A stretch of 51,413 nt of DNA from positions 1 through 51,413 of the IMG/VR virus record IMGVR_UViG_2563366798_000003; one strand, given 5' to 3'. The notes below the pieces were generated by a model. That model was not told the origin of the DNA. It saw nothing but the letters and a program-made list of their open reading frames with translations, and ran no database searches. Position 1 is the first letter of the stretch; every line of letters starts with the position of its first letter. The DNA is from a virus. Its lineage: Duplodnaviria > Heunggongvirae > Uroviricota > Caudoviricetes. Positions 1 to 51,150 of the stretch are shown in pieces. The position numbers and the translations under genes are program-made.

Positions 1-1143
1 CTATGCTGTTTTGATATCTACGATAATCCAGTCTTTACCACGATCATCATTGTATCGGTCGGTCATTTTTCTGGATTTATGACCTAACAACTTTTGCGTA
101 TCCAGCCCCTGTTCCCGATATAACCGTTCTGACAGAGATCGCTGCTCATGAAATGTGGGCGCAGTTCCTGGCTCCCATTTTATGCCACATTTTTCCCTGG
201 CCTTTTTAAAAGCCGTTGTAAGAGTATTTGCAGAAACCTGGTCTCCTCTGTTTGCTTGAGAGGTAGTGTGACGGTAATGGACCAGATATTTACTAACAAC
301 AGCATCCCTGCACTGAGATATAACTTCACGAAGGGTAATATTCAGAGCATCGCATTTCAGGCTAAGCGGAATAGCAAGTTTTGAACCGGTTTTTTCCTGA
401 GTAATGTGCAACATGTCGTCCCATATATCAGAGAATTTCAAATTGCAGATATCGCCTAAACGTTGTCCAGTGACAAGAGCAAGTAGCATCCCGCATTTTA
501 AATAGGGCTGCCGTCTGCTTACGCTGTCAAATATTGCCTGCCATTCGGACAGTGATAATCTTTGGCGGTTTACTCGATTTCGCGGTTGTTTTGTTGCCTG
601 CGCTGGGTTAAATCCTGGCGGAACATGTCCTGCGTGTTGTGCTTCTTTGAAGACGTCGATCAACACCATTCTCACGACTTGCGCCATCCTGTTATGACCT
701 TCAGCCTTTACAGCATCAATTATTTCGGCAATATCAAGTGCGGTAATATCCTTGAGGTGTTGCATTCCACAATGCTCACGGAAGAGACGAATGGGTTTGC
801 CTTTTTGCCGATAGGAGTTGGGTCTTAGTTCATTATGTTGCAGCCTGTCCTCCTGGATAGAAATATATTTATCAAGCCATTCTGTCACCGTAATGTCTGA
901 GCGCCTGCCTTTCATTCTTTCCAGACGCTCATTGACGCTTAATATTTGTCGGGTACGTTGTTCAGCAATAATGGTATTTGCTTCAGTAGCAACCTGTTTT
1001 GCTTCATTCTCATCAGTTCCTAAACTATGAAAACGACCGGATAGTGGATGTTTGTATTGCCAATATACCTTTCCGGTTCGCTTATCTAATTTGCAATATA
1101 AATTGGGTATAGAGATTTTGTGAGATCGGGGTCTAGCAGCCAT
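1..1143 (-). CDS. int: tyrosine integrase, lambda Int family
   Basis: 380-aa ORF; C-terminal region (TFHEQRSLSERLY...LLGHKSRKMTDRY) resembles the lambda Int catalytic C-terminus; stop codon at positions 1-3; overlaps upstream xis-like ORF by 11 nt. Confidence 0.9.
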   Translation of the reverse strand: MAARPRSHKISIPNLYCKLDKRTGKVYWQYKHPLSGRFHSLGTDENEAKQVATEANTIIAEQRTRQILSVNERLERMKGRRSDITVTEWLDKYISIQEDRLQHNELRPNSYRQKGKPIRLFREHCGMQHLKDITALDIAEIIDAVKAEGHNRMAQVVRMVLIDVFKEAQHAGHVPPGFNPAQATKQPRNRVNRQRLSLSEWQAIFDSVSRRQPYLKCGMLLALVTGQRLGDICNLKFSDIWDDMLHITQEKTGSKLAIPLSLKCDALNITLREVISQCRDAVVSKYLVHYRHTTSQANRGDQVSANTLTTAFKKAREKCGIKWEPGTAPTFHEQRSLSERLYREQGLDTQKLLGHKSRKMTDRYNDDRGKDWIIVDIKTA

Positions 1144-1369
1144 CAGCGATTATCCGTTGGAGTTTTGGGTTTGCGTTGATTGGGAGTTGCGGTTCTGCAA
1201 GCGTTCCTACAAAACGGGAATTTCGGTCAATCATCCAGTAGCGACCAACTTTTATAGCGGGTGGGGCCATCATTTTCCCTTGCGCGTATTTTTTCAGAAC
1301 TCGCTCACTTGGTGCTAAGTCCCCAAATTCTTCTTTAGCCCAGTCCTGTAAAGTGATTAGTCGAGACAT
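1133..1369 (-). CDS. xis: putative excisionase
   Basis: 78-aa ORF immediately upstream of and overlapping int on the same strand, the canonical xis position; no sequence identity to lambda Xis recognised. Confidence 0.55.
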   Translation of the reverse strand: MSRLITLQDWAKEEFGDLAPSERVLKKYAQGKMMAPPAIKVGRYWMIDRNSRFVGTLAEPQLPINANPKLQRIIADGC

Positions 1370-1508: not shown

Positions 1509-1748
1509 CTATTTCCTGCGTATGGCACGTAACTTCTTAATGTGTTCTGCCGTTTCGATCTCTTCTGCTATCCGATCTGCATCAGCTTTATTCACAGGTT
1601 CAAAGTCATGATTAAAGCGGAACATGCTGGCGATACATGTTCTGCCTTTTCGGATGTAGTGAACTTTGTTGTGGGTAGAACGCAGGATTTTGCAGGGAGT
1701 GCCGTGGTGATCGACGTACCAGGTGTTAGGAAAAATGATTCTGAACAT
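1509..1748 (-). CDS. hypothetical protein (79 aa)
   Basis: ORF in the int-proximal accessory region, same strand as the pL operon. Confidence 0.4.
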   Translation of the reverse strand: MFRIIFPNTWYVDHHGTPCKILRSTHNKVHYIRKGRTCIASMFRFNHDFEPVNKADADRIAEEIETAEHIKKLRAIRRK

Positions 1749-1795: not shown

Positions 1796-2014
1796 TCACA
1801 GTCCCCATTGTTTGTTCTTAAGTTCGATCTCCTCCTGGCAACTTGCACAAGTCCGACAACCCTGAACGGCCAGGCGTCTTCGTTCATCTATCGGATCGCC
1901 ACACTCACAACAATGAGTGGCAGATATAGCCTGGTGGTTCAGGCGGCGCATTTTTATTGCTGTGTTGCGCTGTAATTCTTCAATTTCTGATGCTGAATCA
2001 ATGATGTCTGCCAT
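1796..2014 (-). CDS. TraR/DksA-type C4 zinc-finger protein
   Basis: 72 aa with CCECGDPI...CRTCASC four-cysteine motif typical of phage TraR/DksA-like zinc fingers. Confidence 0.6.
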   Translation of the reverse strand: MADIIDSASEIEELQRNTAIKMRRLNHQAISATHCCECGDPIDERRRLAVQGCRTCASCQEEIELKNKQWGL

Positions 2015-2112
2015 CTTTCATTAATCCCTGAATTGTTGGTTAATACGCTTGAGGGTGAATGCGAATAATAAAAAAGGAGCCTGTAGCTCCATGATGATTT
2101 TGTTTTTCATGT

Positions 2113-2328
2113 TCACCGTTCCTTAAAGACGCCGTTTAACATGCCGATCGCCAGGCTTAAATGAGTCGGTGTGAATCCCATCAGCGTTACCGTTTCGCGG
2201 TGCTTCTTTAGTACGCTACGGCAAATGTCATTGACGTTTTTATCCGGAAACTGCTGTCTGGCTTTTTTGATTTCATAATTAGCCTGACGGGCAATGCTGC
2301 GAAGGGCGTTATTATGTTCTATTGTCAT
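2113..2328 (-). CDS. hypothetical protein (71 aa from internal ATG; longer 117-aa form would overlap the upstream gene)
   Basis: ORF 2113..2466 in track; ATG at 2328 gives a non-overlapping 71-aa product directly after the stop of the 250-aa gene. Confidence 0.35.
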   Translation of the reverse strand: MTIEHNNALRSIARQANYEIKKARQQFPDKNVNDICRSVLKKHRETVTLMGFTPTHLSLAIGMLNGVFKER

Positions 2329-2335
2329 ATTGGCC

Positions 2336-3088
2336 TCACACTTCGAATGCCAGTTGAGGGGTAAAGACGTCCCGTTCAGCGTTGTAATTAAGTGAACTGG
2401 CACTGTTGAATGATTCAATGCGTTCCACAAGAACTTGCGTACGGGTTTCTTTACTTGCGGGAGCATATGGCGAACCTACCCAGGATTTGTCGATGCCTAT
2501 ATTTCTTGCGACGTTCGTGCTGTCTGCAGACGAAAGCGGTACATGAGTAAAAATGTCTTTATTTAACATCCGTAACCCATGAATCTTGGTGATTGGGTAG
2601 CCGTACTGATCTACAACATGACGTATAAGATCGCGTAGTTTAGCCCGACACGCTCTCGGTCGTTTTGCATCGTATTCCCCCATCGAGCCGATGCAGACGC
2701 GGGGAAACTCATGGCACAGACGAATAAATCGCTCATCCGGTTCGTTCATGTGCCACACCGGAGCACCAATAAATTTACCGTGAGGCCATGCCGCAATCAG
2801 GGCGTCATTCTCTTCACTGGTTCCGCCGATAACATCCGGGATAACCGCGAATGAGAAACGAGGGTGATTACCCCAGCGTTCAACAAATCTGTAATATTCA
2901 TTCCAGTCTATGGCCTTGTTTTTTGTCCAGAATGTGAATGCACCATTATCAAGAGCAAATGATTGGGTGACTTCGGAAGCCAGATCAATCTGAGCTGGAT
3001 TAGCAAAACTGATGAATGCGTGTCTGCCTTTCCAGGCTTTCAACGCACAGGTATCGGGAGTTATTGGACCACCGTGAAAATGAATCAT
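2336..3088 (-). CDS. hypothetical protein (250 aa); weak resemblance to the tRNA-guanine transglycosylase/DpdA D-x-G-G-F motif
   Basis: Long ORF with start overlapping the stop of the upstream micro-ORF (ATGA); contains LDNGAF motif reminiscent of TGT DSGGFQ; no confident family assignment. Confidence 0.7.
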   Translation of the reverse strand: MIHFHGGPITPDTCALKAWKGRHAFISFANPAQIDLASEVTQSFALDNGAFTFWTKNKAIDWNEYYRFVERWGNHPRFSFAVIPDVIGGTSEENDALIAAWPHGKFIGAPVWHMNEPDERFIRLCHEFPRVCIGSMGEYDAKRPRACRAKLRDLIRHVVDQYGYPITKIHGLRMLNKDIFTHVPLSSADSTNVARNIGIDKSWVGSPYAPASKETRTQVLVERIESFNSASSLNYNAERDVFTPQLAFEV

Positions 3089-3243
3089 ACACTCTCCCGT
3101 TTATTATTTATCTCCTCAGCCAGCCGCTGGGCTTTCAGCGGATTTCGGATAACAGAAAGGCCGGGAAATACCCAGCCTCGCTTTGTAACGGAGTAGACGA
3201 AAGTGATCGCGCCTACCCGGATATTATCGTGAGGATGCTTCAT
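3085..3243 (-). CDS. small protein (52 aa), translationally coupled between exo and the 250-aa gene
   Basis: ATG overlaps the exo stop (ATGA) and its stop overlaps the ATG of the next gene (ATGA); a divergent second copy lies at 51059-51154. Confidence 0.4.
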
Positions 3244-3920
3244 TGCCATTGCTCCCCATATACAAAACCAATTTCAGCCAGTGCCTCGTCCATTTTTTCG
3301 ATGAACTCCGGCACCATCTCGTCAAAACTCGCCATGTACTTTTCATTCCGCTCAACCACGACATAATGCAGGCCTTCACGCTTCATGCGCGGGTCATAGT
3401 TGGCAAAGTACCAGGCATCTTTTCGCGTCACCCACATGCTGTACTGCACCTGGGCCATGTAAGCCGATTTTATTGCCTCGAAACCACCGAGCCGGAATTT
3501 CATGAAATCCCGGGAGGTAAACGGGCATTTCAGTTCAAGGCCGTTGCCGTCACTGCATAAACCATCGGGAGAGCAGGCGGTGCGCATACTTTCGTCGCGA
3601 TAGATGATCGGGGATTCAGTAACATTCACGCCGGAAGTGAACTCAAAGAGGGCTCTGGCGTCGTTCTCGTACTGTTTTCCCCAGGCCAGCGCCTTAGCGT
3701 TAACTTCCGGAGCCACACCGGTGCAAACCTCGGCAAGCAGGGTGTGGAAGTAGGACATTTTCATGTCAGGCCATTTCTTTCCGGAGCGGGGTTTTGCTAT
3801 CACATTGTGAACTTCTGAAGCGGTGATGACGCCGAGCCGTAATTTGTGCCACGCATCATCCCCCTGTTCGACAGCTCTCACGTCGATCCCGGTACGCTGC
3901 AGGATAATGTCCGGTGTCAT
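3240..3920 (-). CDS. exo: lambda-type exonuclease (Red alpha)
   Basis: 226-aa ORF matching the lambda Exo sequence from memory almost residue for residue ([50 protein letters not shown]...). Confidence 0.95.
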
Positions 3921-4702
3921 GCAGCCACCTTCTGTTCAGAGGCTTTCTGTTTCAGGAATCCAAGAGCTTTCATTGCTTCTGCCTGTGTCAGTTCTGACGA
4001 TGCGCGAATGTCGCGGCGAAATATCTGGGAACAGAGTGGCAATAAGTCGTCATCCCATGTTTTATCCAGGGCGATCAGCAGAGTGTTAATCTCCTGCATG
4101 GTTTCATCGTTAACCGGAGTGATGTCGCGTTCCGGCTGGCGTTCTGCAGTGTATGCAGTATTTTCGACAATGCGCTCGGCTTCATCCTTGTCATAGATAC
4201 CAGCAAATCCGAAGGCCAGACGGGCACACTGAATCATGGCTTTATGCCGTAACATTCGTTTGGGATGCGACTGCCACGGCCCCGTGATTTCTCTGCCTTC
4301 GCGAGTTTTGAATGGTTCGCGGCGGCATTCATCCATCCATTCGGTAACGCAGATCGGATGATTACGGTCCTTGCGGTAAATCCGGCATGTACAGGATTCA
4401 TTGTCCTGTTCAAAGTCCATGCCGTCAAACTGCTGGTTTTCGTTGATGATGCGGGACCAGCCATCAACGCCCACCACCGGAACGATGCCGTTCTGCTTAT
4501 CAGGGAAGGCGTAAATTTCTTTCGTCCACGGATTAAGGCCGTATTGGTTGGCGACGATCAGCAATGCGATGAACTGCGCATCGCTGGCATCGCCTTTAAA
4601 TGCTGTCTGGCGAAGAGTGGTGATCAGTTCCTGTGGGTCGACAGAATCCATGCCGACACGTTCAGCCAGCTTCCCTGCCAGCGTTGCGAGTGCTGTACTC
4701 AT
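3917..4702 (-). CDS. bet: single-strand annealing protein Bet (Red beta)
   Basis: 261-aa ORF matching lambda Bet ([69 protein letters not shown]...); overlaps exo start by 4 nt. Confidence 0.95.
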
Positions 4703-4707
4703 CCGTT

Positions 4708-5004
4708 TTATACCTCTGAATCAATATCAACCTGATGGTGAGCAATGGTTTCAACCATGTACCGGATGTGTTCTGCCATGCGCTCCTGAAACTCAACATC
4801 GTCATCAAACGCACGGGTAATGGCTTTTTTGCTGGCCCCGTGGCGTTGCAAATGATCGATGCATAGCGATTCAAACAGGTGCTGGGGCAGGCCTTTTTCC
4901 ATGTCGTCTGCCAGTTCTGCCTCTTTCTCTTCACGGGCGATCTGCTGGTAGTGACGCGCCCAGCTTTGAGCCTCAAGACGATCCTGAATGTAATAAGCGT
5001 TCAT
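4708..5004 (-). CDS. gam: RecBCD inhibitor Gam (short GamS-length form)
   Basis: 98-aa ORF matching the C-terminal 98 residues of lambda Gam; AGGAG Shine-Dalgarno 7 nt upstream; in-frame stop at 5059-5061 excludes the long form. Confidence 0.9.
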
Positions 5005-5730: not shown

Positions 5731-5757
5731 AAAAGAAAACCCGGCACGGTGGCCGGG
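5731..5757 (-). terminator. rho-independent terminator after the 317-aa gene
   Basis: CCCGGC / GCCGGG stem (5740-5745, 5752-5757) followed on the minus strand by a U-run (plus-strand AAAAGAAAA 5731-5739). Confidence 0.5.
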
Positions 5758-5762
5758 TATCT

Positions 5763-6716
5763 TTATTCGAATGGAAGATCTATTTGCCTTTGAGGATTCA
5801 ACTGTTTTTTTACATGCTCAATTTCGAATATGGTTTTTATGGCATCTCCGATCATATATTGAGTTACTTTTAAATCTACAAGTAACATATCACCTTTAGA
5901 AAAATTTAAGGTGTTGTTATCAATATCGCTGATGAATTTCTGGTCTTTTATTTCAGCCAAAAAGCTACTGGCACCATCAGAAAACCGCCACCGGCTTCCT
6001 TCATTGAAGGAAATATTTTTAATTTGAAGGGCTTTCTCTACTGTGTACTCTGAAATTATTGATTCTGCTGGTAGATTGACTTTGAAATAATGTGCTTCTT
6101 GCTTGTTGATCGTCATGAATGTCAAACCATCATCGACAGTAGAGGCAAAGCTGTCAATGCCTTCCTGCTCTAATGGCTTACTTATAACTTCTTGTAATGA
6201 AGAGCGAAGTTTAATATTTTTATAAAGTTCAATAACGTTACTGTCGTAGATCTCGCTTTCGTCATCAACAAAGACTTCGATGTTGCTATCAGGCAAATTG
6301 TGTAATTTTTTTATTTTCCTTGGACCTATCCATTTTATCAGTTGAATTAGGCCTTTGCATATTTTTTCTTTAGAACCAGGACAGAGTCCAATAAAAGCAA
6401 TCAAATTCGCAGCGGCTGTTGCTGAATCGCCGGATAAAAAATCAACAGCCTGTTTGAACCAAGATGTAGATGAGGCAACCAGATCTATTCCAAATGAGCC
6501 AGCTTTAAATGATGCATTGACTTTTACAGAAACAACAGTCTTGTTTCCGTAGAGAGTTTTACCGGCTTCCTCTAATGCATCTGATAGTGATAGAAGGGCA
6601 GGAGCAAGGTCTCGCACGTTCATTTCATGCGTTTCCAGTGCCGGACCGTCGTATACTATCCTGAACTTCATATCATTGGTTTCCGAATTGTTGCCCGCAT
6701 CCATTATGGCATTCAC
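5763..6716 (-). CDS. hypothetical protein (317 aa) in the lysogenic rex slot between cI and pL
   Basis: Long AT-rich ORF on the cI strand, directly downstream of cI and followed by a terminator; no recognisable domain; start ambiguous (ATG at 6716 or 6704). Confidence 0.75.
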   Translation of the reverse strand: MNAIMDAGNNSETNDMKFRIVYDGPALETHEMNVRDLAPALLSLSDALEEAGKTLYGNKTVVSVKVNASFKAGSFGIDLVASSTSWFKQAVDFLSGDSATAAANLIAFIGLCPGSKEKICKGLIQLIKWIGPRKIKKLHNLPDSNIEVFVDDESEIYDSNVIELYKNIKLRSSLQEVISKPLEQEGIDSFASTVDDGLTFMTINKQEAHYFKVNLPAESIISEYTVEKALQIKNISFNEGSRWRFSDGASSFLAEIKDQKFISDIDNNTLNFSKGDMLLVDLKVTQYMIGDAIKTIFEIEHVKKQLNPQRQIDLPFE

Positions 6717-6777: not shown

Positions 6778-7506
6778 CTACCCATGCTTCCTATACGTCT
6801 GCGGCATGCTCCCAATAACCTTACCGAAGATGAACACCCGGTTCATCTCGTCTTTCTCGATCGGGTCCCAAGGTGAGTAGCTCTTGTTATCAGAGATAAC
6901 CAGCAGCTTATCCTTCATCATTTGCAGACGCTTTACATGGGCTGTGTCGTCGTACAGAAACGCATAGATACCATCACCGTCGAAAGATTTAACCGTGATA
7001 TCAACGAACAGCAGATCACCTGGTTCGATCGTTCCTGACATGCTGTCACCACGCACGTTAATGATGCGGATATTTTCCGCCTTCCTGCCATCGAACATGT
7101 GACGAGCATCGTCAAACGAGTACTCAACCGAGCGTAGAACTTCTACAAACTCACGATTGATGACACCCGGCCCGGCACTGACTTCTATATCAAGAACGTC
7201 AATCTTGAAGTATTTGGAATGGTTGACAGCAGGCTTCCCTGATTGTTGACCGTCATTTCTCATCGGGCCTATGCCTGATGAGAGCCACTCAGTTCGAACA
7301 CCCAATGCATTAGCTATTTCAACAATTTTTGTTGAGCCGCGCGCGTTGCCGCTTGTCAGTCTCCAGATTGTGGGTTGAGCTACGCCAGACGCCTTTGCAA
7401 GAGCGCCTTGAGACATTCCAGATTGTTCCATCGCTAGGTTTAAGCGATCAGCAAGAGTTTCTTTTTTCATAAGTTTTAATTTATACGCTCGCGTATTGAT
7501 GGTCAA
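6778..7506 (-). CDS. cI: CI-type repressor (HTH + S24 LexA-like peptidase domain)
   Basis: 242 aa; N-terminal HTH (MSQGALAKASGVAQPTIWRL), C-terminal S24 signature GDSM and putative Ala-Gly cleavage site; divergent from the Cro-like gene. Confidence 0.9.
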   Translation of the reverse strand: MTINTRAYKLKLMKKETLADRLNLAMEQSGMSQGALAKASGVAQPTIWRLTSGNARGSTKIVEIANALGVRTEWLSSGIGPMRNDGQQSGKPAVNHSKYFKIDVLDIEVSAGPGVINREFVEVLRSVEYSFDDARHMFDGRKAENIRIINVRGDSMSGTIEPGDLLFVDITVKSFDGDGIYAFLYDDTAHVKRLQMMKDKLLVISDNKSYSPWDPIEKDEMNRVFIFGKVIGSMPQTYRKHG

Positions 7507-10741: not shown

Positions 10742-12289
10742 CTACTTGTCTTTTTTAATATGTTCAATCTCATCATTAAGACATTTATCTATTTTTTTTA
10801 TTAACACATTAATTTCTTCGGTGTTTTGGAGTTGAGTTGTCTTAGAAACAAAAACTCGAATAAAGAATTTAACATAGTGATAGGGTTGAAGTACATCGTT
10901 ATACTTACATAAATCATTTATTGTATACTTGCCGCCTGTTTCTTTTTTTATTATTTTAGCTTGACTTGTATCGATATCTTTAAAGTTATCTTCAATCTGA
11001 AAATCAAGAACCCATTCATCTCCTTTTAAATTATCCTCAATGATTTTGTTGATTTTCTTAGATATATTTTGTTTATATTCTTTGTATCTGTTGTCGGAAA
11101 TGTTAACATTAGAAAACGTGTGTTTTTTTTCATATATTTTTTTCCAAACATTTCTATCAACAATATCTTGAATTATAGCTTGAGAATTTTTATCTAATGT
11201 GTTTTTAAGAGTGTTTTCTAAAAACGTTTTGTCTGGGTTTTCACGATAAAAGTGTTTGATGGACTCAATGAGAGTGTTTTTAGATTTTAAAGAGACAACA
11301 TCATCAGTTTTTTTTCTAGAACACGCTTTGTTAAGCATCGCAGATAGTGCACGATTGGTCTTATGAAAATAAACTTGACTATAAAGCCCACTTCTTGCAT
11401 TGGCAAATTCTAGTATTGAATCCATACCACTTTCTTTATATGCCAGGTAAACACTATTTTCAACTTTCACAGGAATAAATGACATTAATAATCGTCCATA
11501 ATCATAAATCCCATATTTAACGCCGGAGAAGTAGCTATCTCTAAGTAGGTAGTCCATTCTGTCCGCATCTATAGGTGAAGATGATATGATTGAACATAAT
11601 AAAGGATATACATTTACTCCCTCAATGTTATTTTTAAAATCATATCTTTTATCAACAATTTTTATAATGCTTTCTGGATTAATAGCCGCTATGTTTTCTT
11701 TATAGACATCGTCGTCATTTGATTTATCTTGGGCTTCATTTTTTAATTCTTCAATAATTTCTTTAATAAAAATACATGATACTTGTTCGTGGGTTAACTT
11801 GTCATTATCACTTAAAGATATAATCTTATCGTATTGTTTATTTCCTTCAGTTTTGCATTTTTCTTTGAAATCTTTTACGGATATTGCAAAACTATCGAAT
11901 TGGTGGGCAAGTGGGCCATGCCCAACATCGTGTAACAATGCTGCAATACGTAACTCCTGTATAAGACTTGAAGGCATTTTTTTTATATCTAAATATAGAT
12001 CAATGCCCATATTTTTTCGGTCATAAATTAATGCATTCAAATTTATATTTTTCAAAATCTCATACGATAAATGCATTACACCGACAGAGTGTTCAAAGCG
12101 AGAGTGCATTGCAGAAGGAAATACTTTATATAGAAACGTGTTCTGCCTGATATCTCGTAGTCGTTGGAATAAAGGATGGTCAATTATCTTTTTTTCTAGC
12201 TTAGTTATTCGAATCACTCCATGTATGGGATCTAAAAACTTCCCCAGAAGTAAGTCTTCAAAGTTCTCAAGTTTGTTTTTGTTTGTCAT
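10742..12289 (-). CDS. HD-domain phosphohydrolase, Dgt/SAMHD1-like putative dNTP triphosphohydrolase
   Basis: 515 aa; motifs H-x-x-H (HSRFEHSVGVMH), HD (LLHDVGHGPLAH) and D-x-D-R-x-D-Y-x-x-R-D (DADRMDYLLRDSYFSG); AAGGAAAG SD; strongly AT-rich, opposite strand to flanking phage genes. Confidence 0.85.
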   Translation of the reverse strand: MTNKNKLENFEDLLLGKFLDPIHGVIRITKLEKKIIDHPLFQRLRDIRQNTFLYKVFPSAMHSRFEHSVGVMHLSYEILKNINLNALIYDRKNMGIDLYLDIKKMPSSLIQELRIAALLHDVGHGPLAHQFDSFAISVKDFKEKCKTEGNKQYDKIISLSDNDKLTHEQVSCIFIKEIIEELKNEAQDKSNDDDVYKENIAAINPESIIKIVDKRYDFKNNIEGVNVYPLLCSIISSSPIDADRMDYLLRDSYFSGVKYGIYDYGRLLMSFIPVKVENSVYLAYKESGMDSILEFANARSGLYSQVYFHKTNRALSAMLNKACSRKKTDDVVSLKSKNTLIESIKHFYRENPDKTFLENTLKNTLDKNSQAIIQDIVDRNVWKKIYEKKHTFSNVNISDNRYKEYKQNISKKINKIIEDNLKGDEWVLDFQIEDNFKDIDTSQAKIIKKETGGKYTINDLCKYNDVLQPYHYVKFFIRVFVSKTTQLQNTEEINVLIKKIDKCLNDEIEHIKKDK

Positions 12290-12648: not shown

Positions 12649-14151
12649 TTAAATTGCATCTGCAAACTCTGTGATTTTTCGCTCAAGTATGATTGATGAG
12701 TTGCTGTTGTCGATTTTTTTATTTTCATGATTACGAATAGCCAATGACTCATTAAAGTCTTTTGCGACTGCTGTCTCAATAAATTCAATTTCTGAATCAG
12801 AGTGTTTTTTAACAGCTTCTTTGATCTCATCCAGAGTAACATAGAAAAACTCTTTTCTACGATTTACAAGATTGACTCTCTTTTTATCGAAGACATCATG
12901 TAGTTTTTTTTCTAATGATGGAGCGTCCTCCGAATAAATCATGGCATGCACATCAAAAATAAAAGGAACAGATGCATCACCAAGCTCATTTACACGGTCT
13001 TGTGGATCAAGACGTCGTGTCATGCCTATTTTATAAACATTCTCCCCAAAAGAACCTATGTTCGAAATAATATAAACATGACCTTGTTTGGTTTGTTGTG
13101 CCATGGATAATGCTCTTTGATGCTTTGATTCAGCCTGCGACAAACTCTGTTCTAGTTCGGCAATGCGATTTTCGAGGCGCTGCTTCATGTCACCAGTAAC
13201 TTTTTCCATTTCCTTTCTTGCAGCTTCAATTGCTTTTTTATAACGGCGCTCTTCTGCCTCTGCGTCTTGCATGGCCTTTTCTATTTCTCGTTGTGCACGC
13301 TCCTCCTCTCTCATTTGTGCCCTTATTTCTGCCTGTTCTTCTTTTTCTTTCTGTTTTTGCTCACGATATTCATGGGTAAGCCACAACTCCTCAAGTTTTT
13401 TATTAAGGTATTTAGTATTTATATATATGTGATTTTGCTCGTTTAGTTTATTTATGGCCTCAAATGCCTTTGTGATGCGTTCTTCCATTTTAGTGATATT
13501 TTTCCACGTGCAATTACTAATTGCAGCATCACATTCATTATTAAATGCTCTAGTAGTTAGCCTAATATTTCTGTCTGTCATTTTTTTACCCTCTGCTCGA
13601 GAGCCTTCAACAGTCCATTGGGTTGTGCAATATACTGCACCAGAGTGGGTTTTATCCCGCAGCATTAATTTCTGTTCATCCCTGATGGATTTTATTTTGT
13701 TTTTAAATTGCTCTGAATCTTCAAAATTAAAATGAGGTTCGTAAAATCCTAGTTCGGCTAGTTCAACATCTTCTGAATAAATAGAAATTTGCTTTACTAG
13801 CTTATCATATATTTCTTTCTTCTCTTTATAAGTTCTTCTTAGTTCTTGGATTTGTTTATTGATACCATCCATTTTTTCAATGGTGTTTGTTAGTTCATTA
13901 TTGGCATTTTCTTTTACTTTTTGGGACTCTTCTTTTATAATGGAGCATTCTTGCTCTGTTTTCTCAATAAGCTTCTTACATTCCTCTTCCACATTAAAAT
14001 AATCTGCAAAGCGAGATTTGTATTCTTCATTTTTTTGATTGCTATCACTTAATTCTAATTGTATTTTTTTGATGCGTTTGATTGCAGCTATATATAGAAC
14101 AAGAACAACCAATAAAAATATGATTGCAAGTAATAGTGGAGTTTGAGTCAT
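12649..14151 (-). CDS. membrane-anchored coiled-coil protein with C-terminal T5orf172/GIY-YIG-like domain
   Basis: 500 aa; N-terminal hydrophobic helix (LLLAIIFLLVVLVLYIAAI), long charged coiled-coil segments, C-terminal GHVYIISN...VYKIGMT...VPFIFDVHAMIY motif; AAGGA SD. Confidence 0.8.
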   Translation of the reverse strand: MTQTPLLLAIIFLLVVLVLYIAAIKRIKKIQLELSDSNQKNEEYKSRFADYFNVEEECKKLIEKTEQECSIIKEESQKVKENANNELTNTIEKMDGINKQIQELRRTYKEKKEIYDKLVKQISIYSEDVELAELGFYEPHFNFEDSEQFKNKIKSIRDEQKLMLRDKTHSGAVYCTTQWTVEGSRAEGKKMTDRNIRLTTRAFNNECDAAISNCTWKNITKMEERITKAFEAINKLNEQNHIYINTKYLNKKLEELWLTHEYREQKQKEKEEQAEIRAQMREEERAQREIEKAMQDAEAEERRYKKAIEAARKEMEKVTGDMKQRLENRIAELEQSLSQAESKHQRALSMAQQTKQGHVYIISNIGSFGENVYKIGMTRRLDPQDRVNELGDASVPFIFDVHAMIYSEDAPSLEKKLHDVFDKKRVNLVNRRKEFFYVTLDEIKEAVKKHSDSEIEFIETAVAKDFNESLAIRNHENKKIDNSNSSIILERKITEFADAI

Positions 14152-16600: not shown

Positions 16601-17125
16601 TTATTGTTTAACCCATAATAATTCATTGACATTGAATCCCAACTTTTGAGCGGTTCGCACATAGTCTGCTTTTACTTTATCTGGAATAGTTGAGGTCCTT
16701 GCCAGAATCCATAGGTATTCTCTGTTCGGACCACTGACAAGAGCATACTTATACTCATCATCCAGTTTGATTACATTATAGCCACCATAGAAGGGGCCAA
16801 AAAACGAAACCTTCAACGCTGCAGTTTTAGTATCTCCAGTAAAGTATGCTTTACCTTCGCTCTCGCTCCATTTATTTTTCGTTGGATCGTATCCACGGTT
16901 AAGTACACGAATCCCTCCGTCGTTCCGTTTTCCATAAGTAGCGCTGACCTGTTCCAGACCACGTTCGAACCGGTTCTCGAGGCGAGCTATTTCATACCAT
17001 TTTCCGAGGTAGCGGTTGGCGTCAAAATTTGTAATCGGCTGCACACCTTTAGGTGGTGTCGGGGTCTTACATGCTATAAGAGTGAAAGAGAGCGCAATGC
17101 CAGTCAACACAGGCCATAACTTCAT
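16601..17125 (-). CDS. lipocalin-family outer-membrane lipoprotein (Blc-like)
   Basis: 174 aa with lipoprotein signal (LSFTLIAC) and lipocalin motif (GKWYEIARLENRFE); moron position between Q and lysis genes. Confidence 0.8.
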   Translation of the reverse strand: MKLWPVLTGIALSFTLIACKTPTPPKGVQPITNFDANRYLGKWYEIARLENRFERGLEQVSATYGKRNDGGIRVLNRGYDPTKNKWSESEGKAYFTGDTKTAALKVSFFGPFYGGYNVIKLDDEYKYALVSGPNREYLWILARTSTIPDKVKADYVRTAQKLGFNVNELLWVKQ

Positions 17126-17317
17126 AATAAATCCTGTACTTTTGATAGTTGAGAGTAAGTATGAAAGATAGATGATTACGACCGATCACTTAAAGAACTT
17201 TCATACTATATTAGGAATAGTCCATAACAGAAAAATTGTCAGTGATGACGCCAGAAAGGCAATTTATTCCGTGCACTACACAGTTTATGTGTTAATGAAT
17301 TAGTCAAGGGGGAGGAT

Positions 17318-18277
17318 ATGATAAAAAAACCTGTGATTGGAATCAGCGGTTGTTTGGCCGGTTCTGCTGTTCGTTTTGATGGTGGTCACAAAAGAGCTGA
17401 CTTTTTAATGGACAAATTAGTGGAATGGGTAACATTCAGACCAGTATGTCCGGAAATGGCTATAGGGCTGCCAGTTCCGCGTCCTGCTCTACGTCTTGTG
17501 CGCTCGACGCAAGGAAATATACGGATGTGTTTCAGCCACGACCAGAATGAGGATGTGACAGAGAGAATGACAGAGTTTAGTCGTTCTTATATGGACAAAT
17601 TAAAGGATGTATCGGGGTTTGTGGTTTGTGCTAAATCTCCCAGCTGTGGCATGGAGCGCGTGCGTGTCTATGATGAAAATGGTAATCGAGGTCGTAAAGA
17701 TGGAGTGGGACTATTTACGAGCACTTTGATGGAAAAGTTTTCCTGGCTACCGGTTGAAGAGGATGGGCGATTACATGATCCAGTGCTTCGTGAGAATTTT
17801 GTTGAAAGAGTTTTTGCTTTGCATGAGCTCAATCACCTTTACAAGGAGAAATTATCAAGAAGAGAGTTATTGGCTTTTCATAGTCGTTATAAGCTTCAGT
17901 TGTTGGCGCATAGTCAGACAGGCTATAAAGATATGGGACCATTTGTGGCTGCAATACACGAGTGGGCGGATCTTGAATCATACTTTGAGGTGTATCGTGA
18001 TAAGCTGATGGCGATTCTCAGAAAACCTGCATCACGTAAAAATCACACGAATGTGCTGATGCATATACAGGGGTATTTTAGTAACTACTTAAGTACACGC
18101 CAGCGTAAAGAGTTGAGCGAGGTTATACTTAACTATCGTTCTGGCACATTACCTCTTCTTGCGCCGTTGACTCTGCTGAAGCATTATCTGGGTGAGTATC
18201 CTAATGATTACTTGCTTACACAGAATTACTTCGATCCCTATCCGGACGAACTGGCTCTAAGACTGATGGTAAATTAA
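17318..18277 (+). CDS. YbgA-like protein (DUF523 + DUF1722 architecture)
   Basis: 319 aa; N-terminus GISGCLAGSAVRFDGGHKR typical of the DUF523 family; GGAGG SD. Confidence 0.65.
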   Translation: MIKKPVIGISGCLAGSAVRFDGGHKRADFLMDKLVEWVTFRPVCPEMAIGLPVPRPALRLVRSTQGNIRMCFSHDQNEDVTERMTEFSRSYMDKLKDVSGFVVCAKSPSCGMERVRVYDENGNRGRKDGVGLFTSTLMEKFSWLPVEEDGRLHDPVLRENFVERVFALHELNHLYKEKLSRRELLAFHSRYKLQLLAHSQTGYKDMGPFVAAIHEWADLESYFEVYRDKLMAILRKPASRKNHTNVLMHIQGYFSNYLSTRQRKELSEVILNYRSGTLPLLAPLTLLKHYLGEYPNDYLLTQNYFDPYPDELALRLMVN

Positions 18278-18619
18278 TTGTATGCGATATCATCCAAAAG
18301 GATGAGTTCCTGCATACAGGATATTTACAATCGTAAAAACTACACTATGATACCCAGAGTGTCAGTTTGTATAAAAACTCTGTTTACGCTGAAGAAACCA
18401 TTGAGATGCAACTTAAATTTGGTAAACATGCCAGTCAAAATATATGATATTATGATTCCACGCAGCTATATATAATATAACAGATTGGTTTAATAATTTG
18501 TCTTTGTGAGTTAAATACATAATTTTATACTTGTGATGCAATGAGATTTTCCTTATTGTTGAACTGGCGAATATTGATTTTCCACCTATACTTACCTGGT
18601 GTAACCCCAATGATATCAG

Positions 18620-19360
18620 GTGGATAATATGCCATACATATGTTCTATCATTTTGGTGTTGAACTCGTTTGATGTCCGAATTGGTAAAGAAGATATTTTG
18701 TTTAAAAAAGGAAGTGCTGTTCTCATTGATTACAATTTAAAAGATTTTTTTTCATCAAATATAGATCATGTAATGATCGTAGATGTTGAAGAGAAAACAG
18801 TTAATGATTTCTTTAAAAGCAACACACTCTCACCTTTTTCTGTAAGAAGGTTTTATCCGGCATACTTGATGGTGGAATGTGAAGATTTTTCATTGTTAAA
18901 GAACTTGATTGCATGCTTGAATTGTGATGGCAGAACTGTGGATTTTGTTAGAAATCAAATATCACTTGCATGTCTTGCTATCTTATCTTCAGAGAAAATA
19001 GTGCAAAGTTTTTTATTTGGATGTCTTAATAGTTTAGGAAGTAAAGTTAAGGCTATTATTCACACGGATATATCTGCAACATGGAGACTTTGTGATATAT
19101 CTTCAAGACTGTATCTGAGTGAAAGTCTGTTAAAAAGAAAATTAAAGCACGAAGGCTTATCATTTAGTAAATTAATTCTTGAAGAGCGAATGGTGATGGC
19201 GGAAAGGTTATTAAGCTACAATTTATATTCTGTTGGAAAAGTTGCTGAGATATGCGGTTATGAAAACACGTCATATTTTGTAAGTGTTTTCAGAAGATAT
19301 TTTGGTGTTCCTCCCCATCAATATTCATCAAGATTTTTTTTAGAAAAAGACATGATGTAA
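18620..19360 (+). CDS. AraC-family transcriptional regulator
   Basis: 246 aa, AT-rich; C-terminal AraC HTH (VGKVAEICGYENTSYFVSVFRRYFGVPPHQY). Confidence 0.8.
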   Translation: MDNMPYICSIILVLNSFDVRIGKEDILFKKGSAVLIDYNLKDFFSSNIDHVMIVDVEEKTVNDFFKSNTLSPFSVRRFYPAYLMVECEDFSLLKNLIACLNCDGRTVDFVRNQISLACLAILSSEKIVQSFLFGCLNSLGSKVKAIIHTDISATWRLCDISSRLYLSESLLKRKLKHEGLSFSKLILEERMVMAERLLSYNLYSVGKVAEICGYENTSYFVSVFRRYFGVPPHQYSSRFFLEKDMM

Positions 19361-47535: not shown

Positions 47536-48285
47536 ATGGATTATGTTTGCTCCGTAGTTTTCATCTGTCAATCATTTGATTTAATTATAAACAGGAGAGT
47601 TATCTCGTTCAAAAAAAATTCATTGTTTATTGTAAGCGACAAAATTAGAAGAGAGTTACCAGTATGCCCCTCTAAACTAAGAATTGTTGATATAGATAAG
47701 AAAACATGTTTATCCTTTTTTATCGACGTGAATAATGAGTTGCCTGGCAAATTTACTCTTGATAAGAATGGCTATATTGCTGAAGAGGAACCTCCATTAT
47801 CGCTTGTTTTTTCTCTGTTTGAAGGGATTAAAATAGCAGACTCACACTCCCTTTGGTTAAAAGAAAGACTATGTATATCCTTACTTGCCATGTTCAAAAA
47901 ACGCGAAAGTGTAAATTCATTTATACTAACAAATATAAATACATTTACCTGTAAAATTACTGGAATAATCAGTTTTAATATTGAGCGGCAATGGCATTTA
48001 AAAGATATTGCGGAATTGATTTATACGAGTGAAAGTTTAATAAAAAAAAGATTAAGGGATGAAGAAACGTCATTTACTGAAATATTGAGAGATACTAGGA
48101 TGAGGTATGCAAAAAAACTCATAACTTCAAACTCTTATTCTATCAATGTCGTAGCCCAGAAATGTGGCTATAACAGTACTTCATATTTCATATGTGCATT
48201 TAAAGATTATTATGGTGTCACGCCATCTCATTATTTTGAGAAAATAATCGGCGTCACAGATGGAATAAACAAAACAATTGACTGA
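47536..48285 (+). CDS. appY: AraC-family regulator, AppY-like
   Basis: 249 aa, strongly AT-rich, C-terminal AraC HTH; sequence and position next to ompT match my recollection of E. coli AppY. Confidence 0.75.
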
Positions 48286-48534
48286 TAATATTTATTACAA
48301 GTTGTCTACATGTTAATTATAATATTATACAGCGTGTTTTTTGATGTGATATTCTGGAACCATTAATTTGTAATTGGGTTGCTGTCGCCTATTTTATACA
48401 CACTATAATTGATGGTTTTCTATGTGATTTAGTTAATAACCTTCTGGGTTTATTTTAAGGGTTAATTGTTACATTGAAATGGCTAGTTATTCCCCGGGGC
48501 GATTTTCACCTCGGGGAAATTTTAGTTGGCGTTC

Positions 48535-49488
48535 TTAAAATGTGTACTTAAGACCAGCAGTAGTGATGAAGTTATAGTTTTCTATGCCTGCTCCATTTTT
48601 GCTGTAGTCTGAAGTGTTATTATTGTGATCATAAAGTGAAGTATTACCTTTTTTATTCGTAACCCGATTCCATGCGCCTTCAACATAAACTTTTGCGTTA
48701 GGTGTGACGTAATAACCTGCATTGACTGCAACAGAATAGTAATTTTGGTCTTTGACCTTACTGCGATAAGTGATTCTTTTTCCCGGGTCATAGTGTTCAT
48801 CGTTATCAGATGATTCCACCCAGCCGCTGTATTTAAATGTGCCACCTAGCTCAAAATCTTCATAACGATAACTTCCAGTCAAGCCAATGTAGGGCATTTT
48901 AAAACGTTGTTTGTAGCCGATTGCTCTTTCTCCATTCGGGAAGGAGCCGATATCATCTCTGAATCCCTCCTCAGAACTGTAGATATAGGAACCACCTCTG
49001 GCTGTAAAGCTATAACGGCTTTCCTGATATCCGGCCATGAGTCCCAGGCGGTAATTGGGTTCGTTGAGGAGCCAGCCTTTGATATTCAGATCAAATTCGT
49101 TGGCATAATTGAGTTGTGTATCAGGATGTCTACTTTCATCCGTCCAGGTTCCGGGGTTACTGGAATCCATCCAGTCCTGATCGACCATATTGCCACCTCG
49201 GCTGCCGAGTGTTGTCCAGCCAGCAGCCCCGATAGATATCTGAGGCATCAAATCCCAATTAATTGCACCTTTAATAATTGCAGCGTTATTGAATTTCCAG
49301 TCAAGTTGACTGACTTTTCGGCTTCCTTCTTCGGCTAGATAAACACGCTCTTTTGTTTTTCCGCTCAGAGTTCCAAGACTAATGTCCGCATTTATGTTGT
49401 CAGGAGTAAACGATAAAGTCTCGGTAGAAGCAAAAGAGTTGATCGCAATAGGGGTTGTCAGGACTATTCCCAGAAGTTTCGCCCGCAT
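48535..49488 (-). CDS. ompT: outer membrane protease OmpT (omptin)
   Basis: 317 aa matching E. coli OmpT (MRAKLLGIVLTTPIAI...TAGLKYTF). Confidence 0.95.
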   Translation of the reverse strand: MRAKLLGIVLTTPIAINSFASTETLSFTPDNINADISLGTLSGKTKERVYLAEEGSRKVSQLDWKFNNAAIIKGAINWDLMPQISIGAAGWTTLGSRGGNMVDQDWMDSSNPGTWTDESRHPDTQLNYANEFDLNIKGWLLNEPNYRLGLMAGYQESRYSFTARGGSYIYSSEEGFRDDIGSFPNGERAIGYKQRFKMPYIGLTGSYRYEDFELGGTFKYSGWVESSDNDEHYDPGKRITYRSKVKDQNYYSVAVNAGYYVTPNAKVYVEGAWNRVTNKKGNTSLYDHNNNTSDYSKNGAGIENYNFITTAGLKYTF

Positions 49489-50038
49489 AAAAGTTCTCCA
49501 TTCAATCGTTTTAATGATTGAATATGTATTTTTTATATCTAACTTAATGAGTCAATTACATATTGCTCCACTGTTTATATTTTGTTTAGTATTGAATGAT
49601 TATCACAATGCGCTATCTGTTTTTGGTTTAATTATCTGTTATTGTTTCATATTGCGGTTTTACTGTGTGGTTTTTTTATGATTTTGTGGTGCTTTTATCT
49701 ATTTAAGTGCCATGCCTTTAGAGGCATATAAGCGAAAATAGCATGAGGTTTATCCTCAATTACTATGTTTTTTAGTACAAAAAAGAGGGACAAAACTGAG
49801 ACACATAAGGCCTCACAAAGGTCTGCAAGGCTTCACATGTATTGAGATGTTAATAAAATGTAGGCTTGTAATTTTGATATAAATGGTAGATAAAACCTTT
49901 CCCCAAAATAAAAACGAACGTCAATAAAATCAAACGGTTGAATAAAGTTGATTTTGGCTAATAAAAAGACAATAAAATAATTTTTATCATTAAATATCAA
50001 TGAATTGAACTTAATGTTTTTATATACTGCTGCGCCAT

Positions 50039-50190
50039 ATGGGCTGGACTGAAGCCGCAGACCTGATTGTTAAAGGTATGGAAGGCGCAATCAACGCCAA
50101 GACCGTAACCTATGACTTCGAACGTCTGATGGAAGGCGCTAAGCTGCTGAAATGTTCAGAGTTTGGTGACGCGATCATCAAAAACATGTA
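50039..50190 (+). pseudogene. icd: 3' fragment of isocitrate dehydrogenase gene (icd C-terminal duplicate, icdC-like)
   Basis: Encodes ...[49 protein letters not shown]-stop, the Icd C-terminus, with no upstream coding continuation. Confidence 0.8.
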
Positions 50191-50214
50191 ATCACTACAT
50201 GTGTTAAATATTGT

Positions 50215-50244
50215 AACGGGCGTATAACACGCCCGTTGTTTTAT
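50215..50244 (+). terminator. rho-independent terminator downstream of icd fragment
   Basis: AACGGGCGT / ACGCCCGTT stem with ATAAC loop followed by GTTTTAT. Confidence 0.6.
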
Positions 50245-50260
50245 GTAAGTTTGCTAACGG

Positions 50261-50293
50261 TTATCAAAATTTTATCAAAATAAGTTATCAAAA
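50261..50293 (+). repeat. three direct TTATCAAAA repeats
   Basis: TTATCAAAA at 50261, 50272 and 50285; the second matches IHF-like consensus WATCAANNNNTTR. Confidence 0.5.
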
Positions 50294-50465
50294 CCTCTTA
50301 GTTGTTTGGGGTCGGTTGGTCAGTCAGATGACAGTTCTACTGCCAGGTTCCTATTAGACATTCCTCTATTTGGTGGACGCTCGTTAATATTTAGATCCGC
50401 TATGTGTCAGGTGCGGGCATTGTTATAAATGCCAATTGATATAACGTCAGCTCGTTTATCTCATC

Positions 50466-50876
50466 TTACAGAACCTCAACAACTTCAAACTCTTCCATAA
50501 TCAACTCCATATCTTCAGAAAAATGACCTTCCTGGGTGAAAAATCGTTGATGCTCTCTCTGCCAATATTCAAGGCTCAAATCGCCTTCACCTTCCTTGCG
50601 AGCTAACTCGGCAGTAACATCACAAAAACACACCAGTTGCATCGACACCAGCCTGGTCACGCATACCGGTACATCCTGGCCGTCAAGGATGATGTTATAG
50701 CTCCCAATCCTTGGGGCAAATTCTTCCTTCTGATAAGAGGCATAAGAGCCACAGGAGGCCGTTTTAATCCCTTTTTCTATAAGTGCTGCAAGCTCGTTAG
50801 CCAGTTCAGGGCTGTCGCCCATTTGCCAGGCATTCGCGTCCGGATATTTCATCTTTAGTTCATCAACCTTACCCAT
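50466..50876 (-). CDS. hypothetical protein (136 aa from internal ATG; longest ORF reaches 51026), possibly ASCH/PUA-like
   Basis: ORF 50466..51026 in track; family assignment is a guess from size and a G-x-K-T motif. Confidence 0.4.
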   Translation of the reverse strand: MGKVDELKMKYPDANAWQMGDSPELANELAALIEKGIKTASCGSYASYQKEEFAPRIGSYNIILDGQDVPVCVTRLVSMQLVCFCDVTAELARKEGEGDLSLEYWQREHQRFFTQEGHFSEDMELIMEEFEVVEVL

Positions 50877-51150
50877 TACACGTCCTTTCTGATTGTAAAT
50901 AATAGAGAAATAGCTGAGCATTAATTGTTCGAATATTAACAGTGATGCTTTCTTGCTAATATCATAGTTCGTTTTTCGCTCAAAGCGGGCTGTTTGGTTC
51001 TTTTTCATGTGGGGTGAGAAATTCAAGGAGGCGTTGAGACGTTTAAATTTTCACAACGCTACTTTGCGCCATTCTTTACCTCAATCATCATGATAACAAT
51101 CGGTTTGACGAAAGTGATCGCGCCTACGCGGATATTATCGTGAGTATGCT

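Follow-up and report, generated by a model that had tools for sequence, protein, structure and literature searches.

Phage-encoded DpdA proteins, enzymes by which guanines of DNA are exchanged for 7-deazaguanine bases as a means of escaping restriction, were surveyed by Hutinet et al. (2019), whose third group comprises phages that possess a DpdA but lack genes for preQ0/G+ synthesis, and for which a host-supplied 7-deazaguanine was proposed. The DpdAs of phages SPN3UB (YP_007011024), HK106, SfI, BTP1, SEN1, PEAT2 and 7-11, listed in Supplementary Data 1 of that study, belong to this group. According to the same authors, the 'singleton' DpdAs make up a separate gamma-proteobacterial cluster, for which functional divergence was raised and more work considered necessary. 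In DNA of phage 7-11, the only singleton-bearing enterobacterial phage that they analysed, dADG was present at 50 per 10^6 nucleotides, or 0.02% of G, and DNA of mycobacteriophage Orion, which has a singleton DpdA and a host devoid of preQ0, carried no modification, the gene being retained. The DpdA1 proteins of the Queuovirinae CAjan and 9g are validated DNA preQ0 insertases. Deletion of dpdA in CAjan abolishes dPreQ0 (PMC6884629); the DpdA1 gene lies beside folE, queD, queE and queC, and about 30% of G is modified.

Further systems have been described outside phages. The bacterial DpdA of S. Montevideo (7UI4) has 413 residues, including the insertions Ins1, Ins2, Ins3 and a 128-residue Ins8, harbours a CxCx2Cx22H zinc site and needs the DpdB ATPase. 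Structural work on this enzyme (PMC10164549) assigned D95 as general acid/base and D256, at the boundary between β8 and Ins8, as nucleophile; stacking on the base was ascribed to F99 and L236, and its recognition to D130 and H181, and the G206/G207 loop following β6 makes room for the 7-substituent, while the zinc site pins the large Ins8 insertion to the barrel. Cap10, from type IV CBASS (9NTN), acts together with Cap9 and a CD-NTase on protein-linked deazaguanine and employs the catalytic pair H226/D248. Finally, tRNA-guanine transglycosylases (TGT, PF01702) possess a zinc site, tRNA-binding insertions and an N-terminal β-lid.

The DNA analysed here, hereafter the window, is a stretch of 51,413 nucleotides containing a lambda-like prophage. 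An initial annotation had drawn attention to a well-formed ORF of 250 codons without naming its strand; it is encoded on the minus strand (2336..3088), begins with ATG (3088..3086) and is preceded, 3 nt 5' of this codon, by a good Shine-Dalgarno-like sequence, GGGAGAG (3092..3098, minus). Its start overlaps the stop codon of the upstream gene by 4 nt (ATGA), so that the translational coupling suggested earlier is plausible. The upstream 'micro-ORF' is, however, a known small phage gene of the lambda orf60a type, DUF1317 (3085..3249, minus; PF07026, E=2e-33), identified as such in RefSeq and phage annotations as well. It simply occupies the lambda orf60a position and represents context, not a functional partner of the dpdA-like gene. 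On the other side, the ATG (2328..2326) of an orf61-like gene of 71 codons (2113..2328, minus) is found 7 nt past the stop of the 250-codon ORF.

These genes are part of a leftward string without breaks, in the order gam-bet-exo-DUF1317-ORF-orf61-like-TraR-DUF4222-xis-int, all on the minus strand: gam (4708..5004), bet (3917..4702), exo (3240..3920), the genes just described, a TraR/DksA zinc-finger protein (1796..2014), DUF4222 (1509..1748), xis (1133..1369) and int (1..1143), the last lying 1.2 kb from the 250-codon ORF in what corresponds to the left arm of a lambda-like prophage. The kil gene lies beyond gam, and a cI-like repressor gene (6778..7506) is located farther right than kil. The dpdA gene of HK106 occupies the same int-proximal early-left position, but no conserved partner gene emerged when the neighbourhoods of the homologues in PhiR5_1, SPN3UB, HK106 and 7-11 were inspected, as the neighbours differ. 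Promoter and terminator consensus matches around the early-left string are weak only. A terminator-like hairpin (2076..2090, minus; GGAGCTACAGGCTCC followed by a T-run) separates the orf61-like and TraR-like genes and may be a tL-type terminator within the string.

The initial annotation had likened the protein to TGT/DpdA enzymes on the basis of the sequence LDNGAF, calling the resemblance speculative and mentioning that DpdA-type enzymes of some phages put 7-deazaguanine into DNA as anti-restriction. Independent translation confirms this sequence at residues 46 to 51 (L46-D47-N48-G49-A50-F51; codons 2936..2953, minus), where it forms a D-x-G-x-F motif at the end of β3 of the predicted structure. 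Such a short motif is in itself weak evidence: when the whole window is translated in six frames, D.G[GA]F turns up twice. The likeness nevertheless extends well beyond six residues, as whole-protein comparisons reveal homology to DpdA. In PHROGs the protein falls into phrog_887, 'queuine tRNA-ribosyltransferase', with E=2e-99. A family profile (A1), built from an alignment of 53 diverse homologues, was compared by hhalign with CAjan DpdA, giving a probability of 98.85% and E=4e-17 over 175 aligned columns. Five stretches are paired in this alignment: LDNGAF of the window protein or family with LDSGAF of CAjan, PVWH with PCFH, IGS with IGG, KIHGLRM or KLHGLRM with KLHAFGI, and SADST with SCDSS. 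Within the singleton group, the protein shares 68% identity over its full length with SPN3UB YP_007011024, and 35% identity with 7-11 DpdA (YP_004782407; BLASTP, E=1e-36). We therefore consider the 250-residue protein to be, with high confidence, a member of the 'singleton' group of the phage DpdA family, and the family guess made from six residues was correct.

This kinship escapes most reference collections. A Pfam scan of the window protein returned no family at E≤10, PF01702 included, no match was obtained in NCBIfam, and RefSeq naming likewise misses the family. The PF01702 result says nothing against membership, because the validated CAjan DpdA has no Pfam match either. The refuting outcome named at the outset, a lack of TGT support in profile comparison, did formally occur with PF01702, a test that is thus uninformative, and also when the family profile was set by hhalign against the sequence of E. 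coli TGT alone (0.85%, no relationship). The comparison with DpdA was positive as described above. In sequence searches of the PDB, by phmmer with the single sequence and by hmmsearch with profiles A1 and A2, all matches were spurious, to coiled-coil or HipA proteins (E>0.1), and CAjan DpdA found no match there either. The PADLOC model of bacterial DpdA does not match the window protein and is only marginally matched by CAjan DpdA (E=1.3e-3). A homologue search started from the latter returned only proteins at least 68% identical to it, and thus no bridge to bacterial DpdA.

The lack of Pfam, NCBIfam and PDB sequence matches, together with the second occurrence of the motif in the six-frame translation, could be taken to mean that a chance motif had been picked up in an unrelated or non-functional ORF. 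Such an origin is extremely improbable. The ORF is intact, and its 250 residues correspond to the length of its relatives (234-266 aa for the direct homologues in 7-11, SPN3UB, HK106, SfI and BTP1, phages that, too, have no preQ0 genes); its homologues number in the thousands and keep invariant residues of catalytic type, and the profile and fold matches to DpdA are significant. The phrog_887 assignment, the CAjan hhalign result, the BLASTP match to 7-11 and the ranking of folds given below refute it.

With regard to distribution, homologues of the 250-codon ORF fall into 6182 clusters at 90% identity, and 906 representatives of 50%-identity clusters were obtained. With this number of homologues, and the invariance among them of D47, H170, S187, D189 and S190, chance falls far short of accounting for the complete ORF. 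In E. coli 23AR0806, a prophage that is almost the same (99.8% across the first 12 kb) is inserted beside icd, and the protein (WP_109545435.1) is annotated there as 'hypothetical protein'. Of 5426 complete E. coli genomes, 100 contain the allele at ≥99% identity, every copy being unnamed, and Escherichia phage PhiR5_1 carries the same allele (100% identity). In phage genomes, 108 records with a homologue were detected by tblastn, with identities of 86% in Klebsiella phages, 68% in P22-like and lambda-like Salmonella phages, 59-66% in many Vibrio phages, 37% in Escherichia phage HK106 and 35% in Salmonella phage 7-11. Thousands of relatives are found in other Enterobacterales, Vibrio and Aeromonas.

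Three records deserve a comment in their own right. A 1719-bp entry named 'Staphylococcus phage SA 1298 Kay' (OR850331.1) contains a copy whose identity (68%) and bit score equal those of P22-like Salmonella phages, and is therefore probably mislabelled or contaminated. In Salmonella phage PKM.Hi.22.6 (OR053651.1), the homologue is labelled 'Co/Zn/Cd efflux system membrane fusion protein', which is probably a mis-annotation. In the near-identical prophage of E. coli 23AR0806, the annotation treats the antiterminator Q gene (NZ_CP195434.1; prophage locus L002, 34978..35667) as a pseudogene interrupted by an internal stop, and this prophage copy may for that reason be unable to finish lytic growth.

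The fold was predicted with AlphaFold2 on the A1 alignment (mean pLDDT 93.2, pTM 0.89). A confident barrel was obtained, with eight β-strands (residues 2-6, 23-27, 43-47, 78-82, 111-113, 130-134, 168-172 and 187-190) alternating with helices, which corresponds in the model to a (β/α)8 TGT-like barrel. A Foldseek search of the PDB yielded generic TIM barrels only, none of them significant. In a ranked fold comparison, the TGT and DpdA structures are among the top entries: Cap10 comes first (9ntn_B, score 16.1, 9% identity), followed by the DNA preQ0 insertase DpdA (7ui4_A, 15.0, 204 residues aligned, 15% identity), archaeosine TGT (1iq8, 14.2) and bacterial TGT (3unt, 13.7). The first unrelated barrel is fifth (6rg0_A, 13.2), and QTRT2 ninth (6fv5_A, 12.3). 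As the margin above unrelated barrels is small, the modelled fold is supportive but not decisive alone. Among predicted viral structures (BFVD), 30 matches were found at E≤1e-3, and all the named ones are phage 'queuine tRNA-ribosyltransferase'. The kinship with TGT is thus visible at the level of the fold and absent at the level of sequence.

Compared with the described enzymes, the window protein is compact. It shares only about 17-20% identity with CAjan/9g DpdA1, and lacks both the N-terminal extension of about 35 residues and the additional 55 or so residues that follow β8 in these proteins. It is also devoid of the insertions and of the zinc site of bacterial DpdA, and neither a ParB-like nor a DpdB gene accompanies it. 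The zinc site, the tRNA-binding insertions and the N-terminal β-lid of TGT are all absent. Its four Cys (residues 14, 125, 132 and 147) are not conserved and form no CxC motif. CAjan DpdA similarly lacks a CxCxxC motif.

Across the 53 diverse homologues, D47, H170, S187, D189 and S190 are invariant, and A50, D85, H113, G171, L172 and R173 are at least 90% conserved. When singleton and CAjan-type DpdAs are aligned jointly, D47, A50, F51, H113, G134, H170, P184, S187, D189 and S190 are invariant. In the model, D47 and F51 lie at the end of β3, D85 after β4, H113 in β5, G134 in β6, H170, G171 and L172 in β7 (H170-G171-L172-R173, codons 2570..2581, minus) and D189 in β8 (S187-A-D189-S190-T, codons 2516..2530, minus). 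When mapped onto 7UI4 by strand order and spacing, as opposed to coordinate superposition, these residues appear to follow the order of D95/F99, D130, H181, G206-207, L236 and D256 of the bacterial enzyme. Furthermore, D47 and F51 have the same i, i+4 spacing as D95 and F99. The residues under the strongest conservation occupy the ends of those strands on which TGT/DpdA enzymes bear their catalytic residues, with D47 and D189 at the ends of the third and eighth strands. On these grounds, D47 is predicted to be the general acid/base, F51 to stack on the base and D189 to be the nucleophile. D85 corresponds less closely: in both the hhalign and the joint alignment, it is shifted by three columns relative to the Asp of CAjan DpdA. 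H170 is a candidate hydrogen-bond partner of D189, and we infer that the two residues pair.

The pair H170/D189 resembles H226/D248 of Cap10, with a similar spacing, and raises the question of the substrate. A diverged transglycosylase might act on something other than DNA, be it host or phage tRNA or, as Cap10 does, protein-linked 7-deazaguanine; the missing zinc site and the invariant His...Asp pair are both reminiscent of Cap10, singleton-bearing phages display little or no DNA modification, and functional divergence of the subgroup was raised by Hutinet et al. (2019). Yet CAjan DpdA, a validated DNA modifier, also lacks CxCxxC and has a His/Asp pair of the same kind (its His being that of KLHAFGIT), so that these features fail to separate a Cap10-like from a DpdA-like role. 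Neither a Cap9 (QueC-like) nor a CD-NTase gene is present in the window, where the neighbours of the gene are lambda-type early genes, and in sequence the protein resembles DpdA and not the TGT of E. coli. In addition, 9g DpdA fails to complement a Δtgt strain (Hutinet et al. 2019), and a fusion to a DNA methyltransferase, described below, points to DNA. A substrate other than DNA is consequently judged unlikely.

The supply of the modified base is a further point of comparison. A search across the window for homologues of folE, queD, queE, queC, yhhQ, DpdB and Cap9 detected none; where the DpdA1 gene adjoins a pathway cluster, the window gene stands without one. As preQ0-synthesis genes are lacking, the protein is a singleton, which would rely on host supply. 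This absence is not disqualifying, because the group 3 phages are defined by it. E. coli QueF consumes preQ0, and the free pool may thus be small.

Two gene fusions detected among the 50%-identity representatives (contigs L008, 2840..3847, and L009, 8001..9266) are informative with respect to function. One, from a metagenomic contig of phage-like character, joins QueD (PTPS, PF01242) to a DpdA-like domain. The other, situated between the TraR-like and gpA genes of a P2-like prophage, joins a Dam-type N6-adenine DNA methyltransferase (PF02086) to such a domain. Through these fusions, the DpdA-like family is connected both with DNA modification and with the preQ0 pathway; faulty gene calling could have joined adjacent genes, but mere adjacency would point the same way. 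The QueD fusion also bears on the idea that the protein is a hydrolytic TIM-barrel enzyme acting on DNA or nucleotides, which would remove bases or process nucleosides without inserting a deazaguanine, for instance as a glycosylase-type anti-defence function or in DNA processing together with exo and bet. An Asp nucleophile with acid/base chemistry could indeed be resolved by water, the recombination genes exo and bet adjoin the gene, and Orion keeps its singleton DpdA in spite of a host lacking preQ0. However, conservation is not limited to the two catalytic Asp but extends to the putative base-recognition positions D85 and H113, the family includes a member fused to QueD, and no precedent for such an enzyme was found in the literature, all of which makes this activity improbable.

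The reading that we favour is that the gene codes for a compact, zinc-site-free enzyme of the phage DpdA type, which would exchange guanine for host-derived preQ0 in phage DNA and thereby blunt restriction; we estimate its probability at roughly 0.6. Because the gene shares the leftward early string with gam, bet and exo, it would, as for lambda pL, remain silent in a lysogen and be switched on early after induction or infection. The enzyme would then flip a guanine out of double-stranded phage DNA, and D189 would attack C1' and expel the guanine, with D47 acting as general acid/base. N9 of a 7-deazaguanine base would next resolve the covalent intermediate. Since synthesis genes are missing from the prophage, this base would most likely be preQ0 supplied by the FolE-QueD-QueE-QueC pathway of the host. 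DNA carrying sparse dPreQ0, or a derivative such as dADG, would be packaged and would blunt restriction in the next host.

Several observations keep this estimate from being higher. Phage 7-11 has only 0.02% of its G modified, and by dADG, and Orion DNA contained no modification at all. Moreover, the DNA-binding insertions of bacterial DpdA are absent from the window protein, which is also near neutral (pI 7.2). It is conceivable, if on balance doubtful, that the minimal stand-alone DpdA of temperate lambda-, P22- and P2-like phages has diverged functionally and does not serve anti-restriction by bulk modification. It might place rare, site-specific 7-deazaguanine marks, drawn from the host queuosine pool, which could evade or trigger a particular defence or label phage DNA; another possibility, by analogy with Cap10, is that its substrate is different, protein-linked or RNA.

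In other respects, the prophage carries further genes of potential interest. A 500-residue protein with DUF4041 and T5orf172/MUG113 domains (12649..14151, minus) matches the PADLOC PD-Lambda-1 model (E=5e-198) and is a prophage-borne anti-phage gene product, whose gene separates the replication region from the nin region. An ORF of 317 codons (5763..6716, minus), which follows the cI-like repressor gene directly on its downstream side, where lambda has rexAB, has no Pfam match but matches the PADLOC candidate defence family PDC-S42 (E=3e-86); a bidirectional terminator-like hairpin (5739..5758) follows it, and in phage PhiR5_1 a HipA-type toxin pair takes its place in that slot. A 515-residue HD-domain protein (10742..12289, minus; PF01966) weakly matches a PADLOC dGTPase model (E=9e-4) and is possibly another defence or nucleotide-depletion protein. 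Non-phage cargo is found within or beside the prophage in two regions, 16601..19360 and 47536..51026. The first includes a lipocalin (16601..17125), a 2-thiouracil desulfurase plus DUF1722 protein (17318..18277) and an AraC-type regulator (18620..19360), and the second another AraC-type regulator (47536..48285), an omptin protease (48535..49488) and an ASCH-domain protein (50466..51026).

The DpdA family and its singleton subgroup are not new biology, both being already present in Hutinet et al. (2019) and PHROGs. What is new is a previously unnamed member in an E. coli lambdoid prophage: unlike the singletons listed by these authors, the E. coli allele is a 'hypothetical protein' in RefSeq, and no paper naming it was found. 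Our literature searches retrieved neither functional work on any DpdA of lambdoid phages or prophages nor a test of singletons after 2019. Being invisible to Pfam, NCBIfam and RefSeq naming, the family is systematically recorded as 'hypothetical', and a lambda-like E. coli prophage would be an easy system in which to settle the question of singleton divergence. If the enzyme is active, some ordinary E. coli prophages would draw on the queuosine precursor pool of their host to place 7-deazaguanine in their own DNA, which, if true, would have consequences for restriction barriers, for modification-dependent defences and for how the modified DNA behaves in sequencing.
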